Positions 38,054 to 51,488 of a DNA stretch of 64,000 nucleotides are shown one piece after another (positions within the stretch are counted from its first letter, which is position 1; the number at the start of each line of letters is the position of its first letter). Source of the stretch: a phage; NCBI GenBank assembly GCA_036253495.1, contig GCA_036253495.1_4125.1; one strand, 5' to 3'. The notes beneath the pieces are model-generated. The model was not told the DNA's origin and did no database searches. It saw nothing but the letters and a program-made list of their open reading frames with translations. The translations under genes and the position numbers were made by a program.

Positions 38054-38665
38054 ATGTCTAAATATCATGTTTATTATGTAACCAAATTGAGTTTACTAGA
38101 TGAACTCAATCATACTAGTACCAAAATGAAACGTTATACTTATAATGGTATTACTTTCAGATACTTTCCACAAAAAGTACTAACATTCGTTAAGAATTGT
38201 AAGTGCGTTGCTTGTGGCATCGAGGCTACAGAAGTTCGAATCGAACGTTCTAACTGTAGTGATCCGGTATATGGTAAACCGCATTTAAATGTGTATGCAG
38301 TATGTGGTCTTTATGAAGTTATGATGACTGTAGATCATAATCATCTTGCATCTAAAGGTGGTGCTGATTTGGAGTCAAACTTCAATACTATGTGTGCGAG
38401 ATGTAATCAGTTGCGTTCAAATAAAACTGAAACAGTTGATGAATTCCTTGAGAAAGTCAAAAGCCGAAATCTACTTGAAGAACATATGAATCGTTATTTC
38501 AATAAGATTGAGAAGGAAAGTAAACGTCCTACACCAGAAATGCTCGAAGAACGTAGATTGCGTCAAGAGCTATGGGATAACGATCATCTGTGGCATGTTC
38601 GTGAGTACGGGCGACACATGAAAGCATTAAAAAAGGCACAAAAGCTGTTGGATAAACATGAGTAA
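38054..38665 (+). CDS. HNH endonuclease
   Basis: CKCVACG ... DHNH ... CARCNQ arrangement typical of HNH nucleases. Confidence 0.55.
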   Translation: MSKYHVYYVTKLSLLDELNHTSTKMKRYTYNGITFRYFPQKVLTFVKNCKCVACGIEATEVRIERSNCSDPVYGKPHLNVYAVCGLYEVMMTVDHNHLASKGGADLESNFNTMCARCNQLRSNKTETVDEFLEKVKSRNLLEEHMNRYFNKIEKESKRPTPEMLEERRLRQELWDNDHLWHVREYGRHMKALKKAQKLLDKHE

Positions 38666-40622: not shown

Positions 40623-41084
40623 ATGACTCCCTGGAGAGATTTTATGGAAAATATTAACGACTTGCGACATGTTATGGACTTCATTGGCTGTACTGAAGAA
40701 GACAGTGCTTATGATGAAGTACTATTGACATTTATTGAAAACAGCATTATACTACCAGCAATTGCACATAGCTGGCATTTACAAAGTAAACACTACACAA
40801 AACATCTACAATTAGATGAGTTGTATAAAGAGTTACCAGAATATGTCGATGCGTTCATTGAAGGCATTATGAACACTCGTGGTGCTTTACAAATTGGTAC
40901 TGGACACAGTTATAAGTTCACACCAATTGAACAGTGTATTCCGATTCTTGAAGAATACTGTGAACAATGTAAGTACGTTCATGCTATGCTTGAAGAAGCT
41001 GAAGACTATGGCAGTACTAATACCCTTGAAGATATAATGAGTTTCATTGAGGGTACTTTATATAAACTTAAGTATCTTGAATAA
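40623..41084 (+). CDS. hypothetical protein
   Basis: 153 aa ORF. Confidence 0.45.
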   Translation: MTPWRDFMENINDLRHVMDFIGCTEEDSAYDEVLLTFIENSIILPAIAHSWHLQSKHYTKHLQLDELYKELPEYVDAFIEGIMNTRGALQIGTGHSYKFTPIEQCIPILEEYCEQCKYVHAMLEEAEDYGSTNTLEDIMSFIEGTLYKLKYLE

Positions 41085-46289: not shown

Positions 46290-47216
46290 TTGACAATAGC
46301 GATACAAACACCTAAAACTAAGACAGCTATAGGCTTATTAGTTTCACTTGTTATCATCGCTGCGTTTGGATTTTATGGTTTTTCTCAACATGATCGTGCA
46401 TCATCATCGGGCGAAAGTCAGGTGCACAATTTAAAACCGCAAGTTACACAAATTCAAAAGCAGGAATTACCTAAAGGGTATACACCTAAAGTAGTTCCAG
46501 GCAGCGAGAAACATTATACTGTTGAATACGGTGATAGTTATCATTCGATAGCTAAGAAGTTTAAACCGCATAATGTGTTGTTTGAAGATTACGTTACAGT
46601 ATTGAAGAATATCAATCTTAATGCTAAACTTCATACATCGCAGGGTATCTTTATCCCAACAAAAGAGGATTTGAAAGACGTACTGTTACCTGATGTGGTA
46701 GTACTTTTCGATTATAATGATCCTGAAATAGTAGCACACATCAAAGAAGCTGAAGGTTCAATTGAATTTCAGTCCAAGAACAAAAGACGTTTACTTGGGG
46801 GAAAAGTTGGAGTTCCTTTCTACAATTCAAAATTTCATCCTTATAAGGATATGAAAGGTAACTACACAATCGCATATGGTCACTACCTCGGTCCACGTGA
46901 ATCAGATGCTATAAAATATAGGAATGGTATCACAGTTACTGAAGCCCATAACTTGTTACTCACTGATATGAAAAGAATCAATGATGAATTGATTCTATTA
47001 TTGAAGAAGAAAAATGCAACATATCTCACAGTTGAACAACAAATAATACTATTTGATATGGCATTTACTTTAGGTATTAATAAGCTCAATACTTTTAATA
47101 AGTTATGGAAAAGTGTTGAAAAAAGGAATGCAAAAAAGTTTAAAAAAGAAATTAAGAATTCACTATGGTATAGACAAGTTGGGAAACGTGGGGAATTATT
47201 AGTTAATAATTTGTAA
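46290..47216 (+). CDS. lysozyme-like (T4 lysozyme fold) protein with N-terminal TM anchor, TTG start
   Basis: N-terminal hydrophobic helix; C-terminal region (GNYTIAYGHYLG ... LWYRQVGKRGELLVNNL) resembles T4 lysozyme as recalled; strong SD AAGGAGG before TTG. Confidence 0.5.
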   Translation: MTIAIQTPKTKTAIGLLVSLVIIAAFGFYGFSQHDRASSSGESQVHNLKPQVTQIQKQELPKGYTPKVVPGSEKHYTVEYGDSYHSIAKKFKPHNVLFEDYVTVLKNINLNAKLHTSQGIFIPTKEDLKDVLLPDVVVLFDYNDPEIVAHIKEAEGSIEFQSKNKRRLLGGKVGVPFYNSKFHPYKDMKGNYTIAYGHYLGPRESDAIKYRNGITVTEAHNLLLTDMKRINDELILLLKKKNATYLTVEQQIILFDMAFTLGINKLNTFNKLWKSVEKRNAKKFKKEIKNSLWYRQVGKRGELLVNNL

Positions 47217-47220
47217 TTAT

Positions 47221-47245
47221 AGGGATGTTTAACATCCCTTTTTAA
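47221..47245 (+). terminator. intrinsic terminator (GGGATGTT-T-AACATCCC then TTTTT)
   Basis: Perfect stem plus U-tract. Confidence 0.6.
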
Positions 47246-47260
47246 TCGGAGTTTTAGATT

Positions 47261-47893
47261 ATGCTATATAATATTGGTATTATGGACGTACCTGGTGATG
47301 GTAACATAAAATCTCCTGATAATAAAATATATAAAACATGGTGTTCAATCTTTGTTAGATGCTATTCGCCAATATCACTAAAAAAACGCCCAACGTATGA
47401 ATTAACCGAAGTATGTGATGAATGGAAACTATATTCAAACTTCAAAAAATGGTATATAAGTAATTATATAGAAGGTTACTTTCTTGATAAAGATATTATT
47501 GATGGTACTTCTAATATTTACTCACCATATACTTGCTCGTTTGTTCCAAACATTATAAATTGTTGTATTTTGGATGGGAATTCAAAAAACTCTAATCTAC
47601 CAATTGGTGTTCATTATAGACCGAAAGGGAAAGATATGGTCAACGAATTTTCGAATCCATATCAAGCAAGACTCTGGAAATATAAAAAACGTGTATCACT
47701 CGGATGTTATCCTACACCATATGATGCACATAAAGCGTGGCAATTTGGTAAGAAAGAATACTTATTAGAATTGATTAACGACTATAGTGATAAAGTTACC
47801 CCTGAAGTTGTTGTCGGTTTACAACGTAGAATTGATATACTAACCGATGATATAAAAAAATGTAGAATTACAAATTCAATCAGTAAAATATAG
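47261..47893 (+). CDS. putative HNH-type homing endonuclease-like protein
   Basis: N-terminal W-x2-I-x2-RC and VCDEW..F..F..W pattern typical of phage HNH endonuclease N-terminal modules. Confidence 0.4.
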   Translation: MLYNIGIMDVPGDGNIKSPDNKIYKTWCSIFVRCYSPISLKKRPTYELTEVCDEWKLYSNFKKWYISNYIEGYFLDKDIIDGTSNIYSPYTCSFVPNIINCCILDGNSKNSNLPIGVHYRPKGKDMVNEFSNPYQARLWKYKKRVSLGCYPTPYDAHKAWQFGKKEYLLELINDYSDKVTPEVVVGLQRRIDILTDDIKKCRITNSISKI

Positions 47894-47898
47894 AGAGG

Positions 47899-48237
47899 TT
47901 GTATATGCTAAATCTAGTTATTCAAGGTAATGTTGATATTACTCCAGCAATCCATGACGCAATTCATCAAGAAGCAAACACTCTAAATAAATTTAGTGAT
48001 TCTTCAGTACTGAATATTGGTGTTCATGTGAAAAAAGAGCATAAGACACAGTACGCAGTAACTTTAACATCAGGTGGTAAGTCTGTTACTGCCGATGATG
48101 CAGATTTATACAAGGCGATTGTCGATTCATTCGAAAAAATGGAAACTGTATTCAGTAAAGACAAAAGCATTAAATTGCACCGCCGAAACCATCCAGACCG
48201 TCCAGTTGTAGTTGATGTAACTGACGAAGAAGAGTAA
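47899..48237 (+). CDS. ribosome hibernation promoting factor (HPF/RaiA-family) homolog
   Basis: 112 aa; MLNLVIQGNVDITPAIHDAIHQ... and ...ADDADLYKAIVDSFEKME match HPF/YfiA architecture and length. Confidence 0.6.
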   Translation: MYMLNLVIQGNVDITPAIHDAIHQEANTLNKFSDSSVLNIGVHVKKEHKTQYAVTLTSGGKSVTADDADLYKAIVDSFEKMETVFSKDKSIKLHRRNHPDRPVVVDVTDEEE

Positions 48238-48244
48238 TATAACA

Positions 48245-48275
48245 AAGGGACAGATTAATTCTGTCCCTTTTCTTA
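48245..48275 (+). terminator. intrinsic terminator (GGGACAG-ATTAATT-CTGTCCC then TTTTCTT)
   Basis: Perfect 7-bp stem plus U-tract. Confidence 0.6.
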
Positions 48276-48920: not shown

Positions 48921-49327
48921 AAAAGTTTAATATTAAACCGATATTTGATGCTATCGAAATTAAATTGAAAGACCAACGAAAACCCGATGGTACTGGTTTA
49001 TTCTTTAGTTTAGATAGAACCTACGTTGAAACACATGTATCAAGTTTTGATAGAACTGGTAATCTTTTCATCCGTTCATATAACATGTTTTATAGTGAAG
49101 ATGTTTTTATGATAGATATCACTTTAGATGAAAGTATAGGTTTGATGTACATTGAAGATGTTCAATCAAACGATCAACGAAACGGCACACTTCCTATTGG
49201 TGCTACCGAGGAAGAGTTTATGCAATATCAGTTCATTGATGATACCTTTGGTATTGACTTTGTGACATATCAGAGTATAATGCGTGTATACGAACAGTAT
49301 GAGGATTACGTAATTGGACGTTACTAA
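48917..49327 (+). CDS. hypothetical protein, tandem paralog 1
   Basis: C-terminal QYQFIDDTFGIDFVTYQSIMRVYEQYE nearly identical in pattern to next gene. Confidence 0.45.
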   Translation: MKKFNIKPIFDAIEIKLKDQRKPDGTGLFFSLDRTYVETHVSSFDRTGNLFIRSYNMFYSEDVFMIDITLDESIGLMYIEDVQSNDQRNGTLPIGATEEEFMQYQFIDDTFGIDFVTYQSIMRVYEQYEDYVIGRY

Positions 49328-49736
49328 AATACCCAAATTCAACGAAACGTTAAAGTACTTTTCTGAACAAGAGTTCAGTACTGAAAGACGTGGTTTAGTC
49401 ACATACAACCAATATCGCGTAATGTATACTAACCAGTTACAAGGAACAGTACGTATTAAAATCCGTAATGCATATGATGATGGTGATGAATTATTAATTA
49501 TACTAAGAAAAAGTAAGATAGAACTACAATACCATAGATTTGATACTTCCGATGAGTTTGCATGGAATGTGTTAGAAAAAAAAGCAGGTTCATTGCCTGT
49601 AGTTGATGATGGACCTGAAGTACTGGCCCAGTATATGTTCATTGATGACACATTTGGTATTGACTATTCTTCATTTCAGTATATACTATCTATACATAAA
49701 CAATATGAATCCCGCTTGCGTGACAGATTAATTTAA
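49314..49736 (+). CDS. hypothetical protein, tandem paralog 2 (TTG start)
   Basis: C-terminal QYMFIDDTFGIDYSSFQYILSIHKQYE; N-terminus aligns with paralog 1. Confidence 0.4.
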   Translation: MDVTKIPKFNETLKYFSEQEFSTERRGLVTYNQYRVMYTNQLQGTVRIKIRNAYDDGDELLIILRKSKIELQYHRFDTSDEFAWNVLEKKAGSLPVVDDGPEVLAQYMFIDDTFGIDYSSFQYILSIHKQYESRLRDRLI

Positions 49737-49872
49737 TTGGAGGCTTTATGATTGCAATGTTAGAAGAAGATTGGGGTGTTTCTGAACAAGGAACCGACGA
49801 ATATCAAGTTCCAGAATACAAGCCAAAAGGCTTCTGGGAAAGTCTGCGTGATTGGTTGATGGGAGAATAAGA

Positions 49873-50985
49873 ATGAAAAAATACCTTGTTGGTGGATACT
49901 GCCGCGACCGTCTAATGGGCATTCGTGCAAAGGACAAAGATTATGTCATTGTTGGTGCAACTGAATCTGATATAAAATACTTAGAAAGTATTGGATATAA
50001 ACAGGTTGGTAAAGATTTTCCAGTTTATCTAAGCCCAGAAGGTAACGAACACGCATTAGCCCGTACTGAACGAAAAACTGGTACTGGATACGGTGGCTTC
50101 GAAGTGGATACAAAAGGTGTAACACTGGAACAAGATTTGTATCGTCGTGATCTTACAATTAATGCAATCGCGTATGATCCAGTACTGCAAATTCACATCG
50201 ACCCATACGGTGGTAAAGCTGATATCAAGAATAAAGTACTACGCCATGTATCCGAGCACTTCAAAGAAGATCCATTGCGTGTATTACGTCTAGCTCGCTT
50301 TGCTACGCGTTATTCTGATTTCTCTATACACGAGACTACTGAAGCACTTGCAATCGATATGGTAGCGTCTGGTGAGCTAAATCACCTTGTTCCAGACCGT
50401 GTTTATGTTGAATTTGAAAAGGCATTGTCAGAAGAGAAGCCAGCTAAGTTCCTTAAAACACTAAGTAAGTTGGGTTACTATGAAAAAGCATTTAATGCTA
50501 CATTAACCAAAAAGTCATTGGAACTCATTGATCATATCTCTGATAATTGTACTGAAGCATATAAGCCATATTTCTTATGGTCTGTGCTTCTTGAGAAAGA
50601 AGAAGTTGGCGAGGATTCAGTACTGAATGGTGCTATTAAAATGCCCGTTAAGTACGTTAAATTCAGTAATTACATCAAACGTTTCCGTGATGATATCAAG
50701 GCATTCCGTAAAAAGACCCCAAATGAAATGGGACAATTATTACTGGATATGAATATCAAGAATAACGGCGGTGAAGAATTCCTTTACAAAGTACTGGAAT
50801 ATTTTATTCTACGTAAAGAGATTGATTTAGACCTTGAAGATTTAATCATTAAGGTATATGATCGTTACACTGATGTAGTACTTCCAGATATTCAACAACT
50901 GGTAAAAGACGGTGAGTTAGAAGCATCTGAAATCCGTGATTTTGTTTCAGATTTACGTTGTGAAGCAATTCAACAAATGTTTTAA
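49873..50985 (+). CDS. tRNA nucleotidyltransferase (CCA-adding enzyme) family protein
   Basis: Head-domain motif YLVGGYCRDRLMGIRAKDKDYV (GG.xRD..LG....D.D); ATG at 49873 after GGAG. Confidence 0.7.
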   Translation: MKKYLVGGYCRDRLMGIRAKDKDYVIVGATESDIKYLESIGYKQVGKDFPVYLSPEGNEHALARTERKTGTGYGGFEVDTKGVTLEQDLYRRDLTINAIAYDPVLQIHIDPYGGKADIKNKVLRHVSEHFKEDPLRVLRLARFATRYSDFSIHETTEALAIDMVASGELNHLVPDRVYVEFEKALSEEKPAKFLKTLSKLGYYEKAFNATLTKKSLELIDHISDNCTEAYKPYFLWSVLLEKEEVGEDSVLNGAIKMPVKYVKFSNYIKRFRDDIKAFRKKTPNEMGQLLLDMNIKNNGGEEFLYKVLEYFILRKEIDLDLEDLIIKVYDRYTDVVLPDIQQLVKDGELEASEIRDFVSDLRCEAIQQMF

Positions 50986-51058: not shown

Positions 51059-51488
51059 ATGCGTTATAGTTGTGGCATTATATTTTATCGTGATGGTCAG
51101 ATACTTGTTGGACACACAACACGGACAGAAGCATTGGGATTTACCAAAAGGTAAAACCGAGGGCAATGAAACATTTGCTGAAGCTGCTGTTCGTGAGTGC
51201 TATGAAGAAACAGGATTTGAGATTGATGAAAAGGATCTTCTCTTATTAGGTGATGTATCATACAGGAAAGGGAAAAGATTAGTTTTATTTTTCTATACAG
51301 CTAAATACAAACCCGAACCGGATGAACTGAAGTGTAACAGTACTTATACCAATCGATATGGTAAAAGCCATCCAGAATTGGATAAATTCATGTACATTGA
51401 TGTTCAAGATTGTCAAAAGTATTTGACCGAACGAATGTGTAACAGTATAATTAAAGCTGTTAAATTGTTTCAAAAAAATAAAGGATAG
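51059..51488 (+). CDS. Nudix hydrolase, apparently interrupted by a +1 frameshift near 51113-51125
   Basis: Frame A (51059-51154) encodes MRYSCGIIFYRDGQILVGHTTR; frame B (track ORF 51072-51488) carries an exact Nudix box GKTEGNETFAEAAVRECYEETG. Confidence 0.5.

Follow-up and report, generated by a model that had tools for sequence, protein, structure and literature searches.

Members of the HPF/RaiA family park idle ribosomes. In Escherichia coli, the tail of RaiA is flexible and runs toward the site of RMF, and it is thought to stop RMF from binding and hence 100S particles from forming. Homologs are also found in phages: PF02482 proteins were described both in coliphages of the rV5 type and in the jumbo phage GAP32, with the proposal that phage HPFs compete with their cellular homologs and so prevent ribosome dimerization (Mizuno et al., 2019; PMC6375957). 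The HPF of rV5, the only phage HPF assayed, was not incorporated into 70S or 100S particles and left the ribosome profile unchanged. A literature search on phage HPF/RaiA function and on Asteriusvirus expression returned only this work and mentions in genome announcements, with no functional study of a jumbo-phage HPF among them. The Sharanji genome paper places the ortholog among translation-related genes, and the structural paper on phAPEC6 does not mention the gene.

Here, we focus on one such gene in a window of 64,000 nucleotides of phage DNA, which belongs to an Asteriusvirus jumbo coliphage (PBECO4/121Q group). The family assignment is already known for this phage clade, as is evident from RefSeq, where the orthologs of 121Q and PBECO4 are named "HPF/RaiA family ribosome-associated protein", and from the inclusion of the positional ortholog of GAP32 in the survey of Mizuno et al. 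(2019). The names in other records are more diverse and include "ribosome-associated inhibitor A", "ribosome hibernation promoting factor" and "sigma 54 modulation protein/S30EA". Some entries carry the labels "putative sigma factor", "putative sigma 54" or "putative sigma" (ON286972.1, A4_529; KM507819.1, 121Q gene 533; MH383160.1; MH791411.1). These labels are a garbled form of an old name of the family, "sigma-54 modulation protein", and a sigma factor finds no support in either sequence or fold. What interest remains lies in the possible function of the gene and in how this clade has remodelled the contact surface.

The initial annotation described a protein of 112 aa at 47899..48237. The reading frame is indeed present on the plus strand, but its length had to be revised. 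The TTG at 47899 immediately adjoins the Shine-Dalgarno-like GAGAGG motif with no spacer. The in-frame ATG at 47905 lies 6 nt past this motif and gives the MLNL... start common to every annotated ortholog, so that the true product is most likely 110 residues long. An AAGG/AGG motif aligns at the equivalent place in A4, 121Q, JNE01 and Munch. Downstream, a terminator-like hairpin begins 7 nt past the stop codon (ΔG -17.9 kcal/mol, z = -5.1), and none of 200 shuffled sequences was equally stable. The terminator scan lists this hairpin on the minus strand, the palindrome folding on the plus strand too, and Munch has an annotated terminator at the matching place after its HPF gene. Since the promoter scan counted 21 sigma-70-like sites where shuffled sequences gave an expectation of 22.5, no promoter is claimed. 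The coordinates of the locus and its surroundings are collected in Table 1.

Table 1. Features at and around the phage HPF/RaiA-family gene, with positions in the window.
Feature	Position	Strand	Evidence and remarks
Second HNH endonuclease, canonical	38054..38665	+	PF01844, 23.8 bits
DUF5856 protein	40623..41084	+	E=5e-27; roughly at the place of the 121Q "starvation-inducible DNA-binding protein" gene
Lysozyme, 308 aa	46290..47216	+	PF00959, E=1.7e-8; hydrophobic N-terminal segment
"HNH endonuclease" ORF (PHROG 953), 210 aa	47261..47893	+	E=6e-59, match confined to the C-terminal half of the profile; no Pfam match
Shine-Dalgarno-like GAGAGG	47893-47898	+	6 nt upstream of ATG 47905; read from the sequence
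HPF/RaiA-family CDS, 110 aa	47905..48237 (including stop)	+	ORF call, profile matches, predicted fold, dN/dS
Core fold (residues 1 to ~95) and conserved tail (~92-110, HRRNHPDRPVVVDVTDEEE)	within 47905..48237	+	
Intrinsic-terminator-like hairpin leading into a T-rich tract	48244..48270	+	11-bp GC-containing stem, AAAGGGACAGA/TCTGTCCCTTT
phrog_36582 ORF, 136 aa	48289..48699	+	function unassigned in PHROG
phrog_20693 ORFs, 138 aa and 140 aa	48911..49327, 49314..49736	+	E=1e-58 and 2e-44; 14-nt overlap
CCA-adding/poly(A)-polymerase-family tRNA nucleotidyltransferase	49852..50985	+	PF01743 with PF12627; 1.6 kb downstream of HPF
NUDIX hydrolase	51072..51488	+	2.8 kb downstream of HPF

A profile search against the hibernation-factor family, the check proposed in the initial annotation, gave a significant match to Pfam PF02482 (Ribosomal_S30AE), with an E-value of 3.8e-10 and 40.8 bits against a gathering cut-off of 23.7. 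In the protein the match extends over residues 8-87, and in the profile, which has 88 positions, over positions 5-84. When all PDB sequences were searched with phmmer, only HPF, RaiA and protein Y chains were recovered, the top match at 5e-7. The phage protein also carries the family signatures T13 (within "IT.A") and D67-L-Y69-x-A-I72 at the start of alpha2, in columns (T13, D67, Y69, I72) that are conserved at 94-100% among 158 bacterial-like homologs. By the profile, the PDB search and the signature residues alike, the resemblance to HPF/YfiA first noted from the pattern of residues is far above chance. The stricter NCBIfam equivalogs were not reached: the scores were 34.8 bits for TIGR00741 "yfiA" (cut-off 40.9), 20.1 bits for the HPF model NF007780 (cut-off 125) and 17.3 bits for the RaiA model NF007654 (cut-off 158). 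Because of these scores under the equivalog cut-offs, the phage protein is, as judged from its sequence, a divergent family member rather than a copied host gene. Aligned directly, it shares 25-27% identity with E. coli RaiA and HPF, the RaiA sequence used differing from the PDB version at one residue, T99. This identity, together with the weakness of the nearest non-phage profile matches, led us to reject a recent capture from the E. coli host. Dodecin was likewise rejected, as the match to Pfam Dodecin (PF07311; E=6e-4, 20.5 bits) falls below the cut-off of 22.5 and no dodecin appears among the structural neighbours.

The structure was predicted with AlphaFold2 in two runs, one from an alignment of 11 sequences (pLDDT 74.7) and one from an alignment of 79 sequences (pLDDT 79.5, pTM 0.66). 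The topology is the same in both models, with beta1 at residues 2-8, alpha1 at 14-30, beta2 at 36-46, beta3 at 49-56, beta4 at 59-65 and alpha2 at 68-95, followed by an unstructured C-terminal tail. The fold expected of the family, with one strand, a helix, three more strands and a second helix, is thus present in the models, and superposition on factors bound to the ribosome gives 1.2-2.0 Å. Neither of the two outcomes that the initial annotation named as refuting was thus observed. Taken together, we regard family membership and fold as close to certain.

Past alpha2, the phage protein continues with ...KLHRRNHPDRPVVVDVTDEEE, which aligns with the tail of RaiA so that the RR pairs and the acidic ends are in register; the likeness is compositional (RR and an acidic end) and not a strong sequence match. 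Residues 92-110 are predicted to be unstructured and are conserved and constrained. A basic pair followed by an acidic C-terminus is found in all positional orthologs, even where the core has strongly diverged, as in Munch (...AKRHQKIDLTESDE), GAP32 (...KGKRTNINRDVDVSTEDNEE), Hallingskeid (...SKRNQPVHFDLTEDNE) and the metagenomic proteins P0016-P0020. Among the mid-length family members collected, 20 of 143 have this type of tail, and most of the 20 are from the phage clade. With an RR pair and an acidic end as in RaiA, located beyond the point where short HPF ends, the architecture reads as RaiA-like, that is, a single domain with a C-terminal extension of ~20 residues. The short HPF (YhbH) subtype was rejected on length, 110 aa with a tail against ~95 aa, and on the NF007780 score given above. 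The long HPF subtype, with its dimerization domain and ~180-200 aa, does not fit a protein of 110 aa with no second Pfam domain. Since the NCBIfam equivalogs are all far under cut-off and do not discriminate between HPF and RaiA, the subtype is assigned by architecture only.

The HPF gene of the window is identical to that of Escherichia phage A4 (100% in nucleotides, the protein likewise). Using tblastn, the protein was found in 43 phage records, nearly all from 310-385-kb phages of Escherichia, Salmonella, Klebsiella and Erwinia, and its length is conserved in more than 40 phage genomes. The gene lies in a conserved order that runs from lysozyme through an optional HNH-like ORF to HPF, 2-5 small ORFs, the CCA-adding tRNA nucleotidyltransferase, NUDIX and a glutaredoxin or thioredoxin. 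This order was seen in 121Q, A4, JNE01, Munch, metagenomic contigs and the Cronobacter phage GAP32, with HPF identity to the window protein of 33% in Munch and ~25% in the syntenic metagenomic contigs. Among Asteriusvirus orthologs, dN/dS is 0.12-0.27 (pairwise Nei-Gojobori), which indicates purifying selection, and both core and tail are constrained. A profile of the clade, searched against 1.84 billion cluster representatives, gave only 6 matches below 1e-10, and on this ground the phage clade is an isolated, vertically inherited lineage of the HPF/RaiA family. A protein of 1605 aa, P0015, was also matched (E=2.7e-32) and was set aside as a relative: it consists of ~29 near-identical 53-aa repeats, and the score arises from repeated partial matches to profile positions 45-81. 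It is most likely an artefact of assembly, amplification or rolling-circle copying and not a real multi-domain relative.

The genes around HPF have features of their own. The lysozyme ortholog is labelled LysM-domain-containing in 121Q and "tail lysozyme" in Munch. Between lysozyme and HPF, a segment of 724 nt (47180-47903) stands in place of 50 nt of A4, the nearest relative, and stops just 1 nt short of the start codon of HPF. Within it are the final 37 nt of the lysozyme gene, a terminator hairpin (47221-47239) and the 210-aa ORF, homologs of which (48-51% identical) are found at the same lysozyme|HPF junction in JNE01, Munch, 7t3, SE_PL, fENko-Kae01 and GAP32, in the last as a split pair of ORFs. 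At this junction, an HNH-type ORF is absent from A4, 121Q, SP27 and EJP2. At its 3' end, the lysozyme gene of the window is like that of the endonuclease-carrying phages, and the gene is only 93% identical to A4 as against 99.8% and 97.5% in the flanks. The segment has the look of a homing-endonuclease cassette of the free-standing kind, accompanied by a co-conversion tract. In the phages that lack the HNH ORF, HPF follows the lysozyme gene after only 14-17 nt with no terminator between them, which suggests that the two genes are co-transcribed there.

Downstream, the two adjacent ORFs between HPF and the CCA-adding enzyme gene both match phrog_20693 and are therefore a tandem paralog pair. 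The succession of HPF, CCA-adding enzyme, NUDIX and glutaredoxin is kept in all related jumbo phages examined. A tRNA scan found no tRNA genes within the window, and PADLOC gave no defence-system match for the HPF gene or its neighbours. The wider region in 121Q contains PhoH-like, Sir2-like, ClpP-like and HslV-like genes, a cluster of stress or stationary-phase type near the HPF gene.

Whether the phage protein has the means to bind a ribosome was judged from its contact residues, which were taken from two published lists (bioRxiv 10.1101/2025.10.07.680626; PMC4889938) and compared in an alignment of 180 sequences. Ribosome contacts are made mainly via alpha2 and the sheet (bioRxiv 10.1101/2025.10.07.680626). 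Here, K78 (E. coli K80), K85 (K87), K87 (K89) and K29 are kept and invariant in the clade, as is K90, which adjoins the column of E. coli K91. The contact position T53 is also kept, with T or A across the clade. Other contacts are replaced with respect to E. coli, namely R17 by H17, K23 by E23, K26 by T26, R83 by T81 and K91 by I89, in columns where 74-93% of the bacterial-like homologs have a basic residue. The K26 column, T in this protein, is K in other jumbo-phage lineages, and the R83 column is T or S in most jumbo-phage orthologs. As to charge, alpha1 has a net value of -1 against a bacterial mean of +1.8, which puts it among the lowest 3% of homologs. An invariant HVKKEHK motif makes the beta-sheet unusually positive, and the overall net charge of -2 is within the bacterial range and not discriminating. 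R83 contacts m4Cm1402 and has been called essential (bioRxiv 10.1101/2025.10.07.680626). However, the HPF of Thermus thermophilus, a ribosome binder, also has T at the R83 column in the phmmer alignment, and in Staphylococcus aureus HPF mutation of the alpha1 patch alone did not abolish ribosome binding (PMC4889938). Given these two cases and the prominence of alpha2 and sheet contacts, ribosome binding by the phage protein is plausible but not assured despite the losses.

The suggestion in the initial annotation that the protein modulates hibernation or the formation of 100S particles is speculative. The reading we favour, with a probability of roughly 60%, is that of a RaiA-type factor that would occupy the 30S decoding channel of idle host 70S ribosomes, with a tail that would disfavour RMF-dependent dimerization, so that the ribosome pool would be preserved or buffered. 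The protein probably docks like RaiA/protein Y in the decoding channel between the 30S head and body of a vacant 70S, where it would overlap the positions of the A- and P-site tRNAs and the mRNA. Binding to the 30S decoding region, taken by itself, is somewhat better than an even bet. With the tail directed to the RMF site, ribosomes would be kept as protected, silent 70S monomers and not as RMF/HPF-driven 100S dimers. This specifically RaiA-like, anti-100S outcome, which we infer from the architecture of the tail, is put forward tentatively and at less than even odds. Over the long infection cycle of a jumbo phage, the idle pool of host ribosomes may thus be preserved or buffered, and the hibernation programme of the host possibly overridden. 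Several observations weigh against the favoured reading: the HPF of rV5, admittedly of a different lineage, was absent from the 70S and 100S fractions (PMC6375957), the phage protein has basic contact residues replaced, an alpha1 charge of -1 and scores that failed all NCBIfam equivalog cut-offs, and the likeness of its tail to that of RaiA is compositional.

The same evidence lends itself to a different reading, in which the fold has been repurposed: binding to the decoding site would be lost or weak, and the protein would bind some other RNA or protein, such as tRNA, transcripts of the phage, or a factor of host hibernation or rescue for which it could act as a decoy. The eroded basic patch of alpha1, the loss of the R83 equivalent, the failed equivalog cut-offs, the rV5 result (PMC6375957) and the shift of positive charge onto the beta-sheet, seen in the invariant HVKKEHK, all speak for this reading. 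Against this, the alpha2 lysines and T53, which form the main contact surface, are kept in the clade, and the model superposes on ribosome-bound factors. Such losses are also tolerated elsewhere, as the S. aureus alpha1-patch mutant still binds ribosomes (PMC4889938) and Thermus HPF does so without an R83 equivalent. We consider a repurposed fold, the main rival, unlikely. It is very unlikely that the protein, like short HPF, promotes 100S formation together with host RMF and shuts translation down late in infection or in starved hosts. Family and fold are the same as those of E. coli HPF, and the NCBIfam score for HPF exceeds that for RaiA (20.1 against 17.3 bits), a marginal difference that does not discriminate. 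The conserved C-terminal extension, however, is of the RaiA type, thought to clash with RMF, and the protein, with 110 aa and one Pfam domain, lacks the dimerization domain of long HPF.

Just as little weight falls on an inhibitor for host shutoff, which would actively keep host mRNAs from being initiated, phage messages escaping with the help of other factors of the phage, for instance the IF3 homolog of relatives. RaiA does block initiation by filling the A and P sites. Moreover, with genes for IF3, a CCA-adding enzyme and tRNAs, related phages seem to manipulate translation broadly, and in the window the gene of a CCA-adding enzyme is found 1.6 kb downstream. But HPF/RaiA proteins act on vacant ribosomes and without mRNA selectivity, and in the relatives without the HNH ORF the gene comes right after lysozyme with no terminator, a position unusual for a gene of immediate-early shutoff. 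Effectively excluded are a chance ORF, a host gene captured and now in decay, and a dodecin-like protein. The weak match to Pfam Dodecin (E=6e-4) is set against dN/dS of 0.12-0.27, a length kept in more than 40 phage genomes, synteny across genera, a ribosome-binding site and terminator of the gene's own, host identity of only 25-27% and no dodecin as a structural neighbour. A more far-reaching version of the RaiA-type reading can also be drawn, and as a whole it is quite unlikely. Here, the clade would have evolved its own RaiA-type factor with a remodelled rRNA-contact surface, in which the alpha1 patch and the Arg83 equivalent were lost, beta-sheet lysines gained and the RR/acidic tail kept. 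Such a factor would take the site of host HPF/RaiA during infection, block RMF/HPF-driven 100S formation and protect the decoding centre against nucleases of the host or abortive-infection effectors aimed at ribosomes, and it would be displaced easily enough for phage translation to continue. If this were true, a RaiA-type factor would be an anti-dormancy or ribosome-protection factor of counter-defence.

The gene bears on how large phages handle host translation, especially in slow-growing or starved cells with hibernating ribosomes. The gene of a CCA-adding enzyme lies close by, and tRNAs and an IF3 homolog are encoded in these genomes as well. A RaiA-like gene that is selectively maintained in a whole clade of 350-kb enterobacterial phages offers a concrete and testable handle on this question.

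A comparison with known systems places the phage protein as follows. PhiKZ gp014 likewise comes from a jumbo phage and has been proposed to act on the ribosomes of the host (Gerovac et al., cited in PMC11895373), but it is an unrelated protein, and the Sharanji paper states that it has no homolog in this phage clade. The HPF of rV5-like coliphages (ABI79209; Vequintavirinae) is a PF02482 protein from a large E. coli myovirus as well. It represents a separate lineage, however, with ~44% identity to E. coli HPF and ~100 phage records, and it was not recovered by tblastn with the window protein. The two also fall into different PHROGs, the window protein belonging to phrog_34864 and matching phrog_8990 only at E=2.4e-5. 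Short HPF of E. coli (YhbH; PDB 2RQL, 6H4N) shares fold, family and the conserved alpha2 lysines. Unlike the phage protein, which has 15-20 more conserved residues, it ends at residue 95 without a tail and forms 100S dimers with RMF. GAP32 gp183 (AFC21633 / YP_006987288) is very divergent, with a BLASTP identity of 33% over 46 residues only, and comes from a phage of a different host genus (Cronobacter). It is nonetheless a positional ortholog, within a series of lysozyme, HNH, S30EA, tRNA nucleotidyltransferase, NUDIX and glutaredoxin genes, and a protein of 111 aa from the same Pfam family with a basic-then-acidic tail. E. coli RaiA (YfiA, protein Y; PDB 1N3G, 4V8I) differs in sequence (~25% identity; 17.3 bits against the equivalog cut-off of 158) and in its contacts, since the phage protein has E, T and T in place of R23, K26 and R83. 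The phage gene, moreover, comes from a lytic jumbo phage and stands outside the stationary-phase and cold-shock control of the host. In contrast to these differences, the two proteins are alike in length (113 and 110 aa), in keeping the equivalents of K80, K87 and T53, and in having an extension after alpha2 that is predicted to be disordered, with an RR pair at the aligned place and an acidic C-terminus (EEVEEE in RaiA and VTDEEE in the phage protein).
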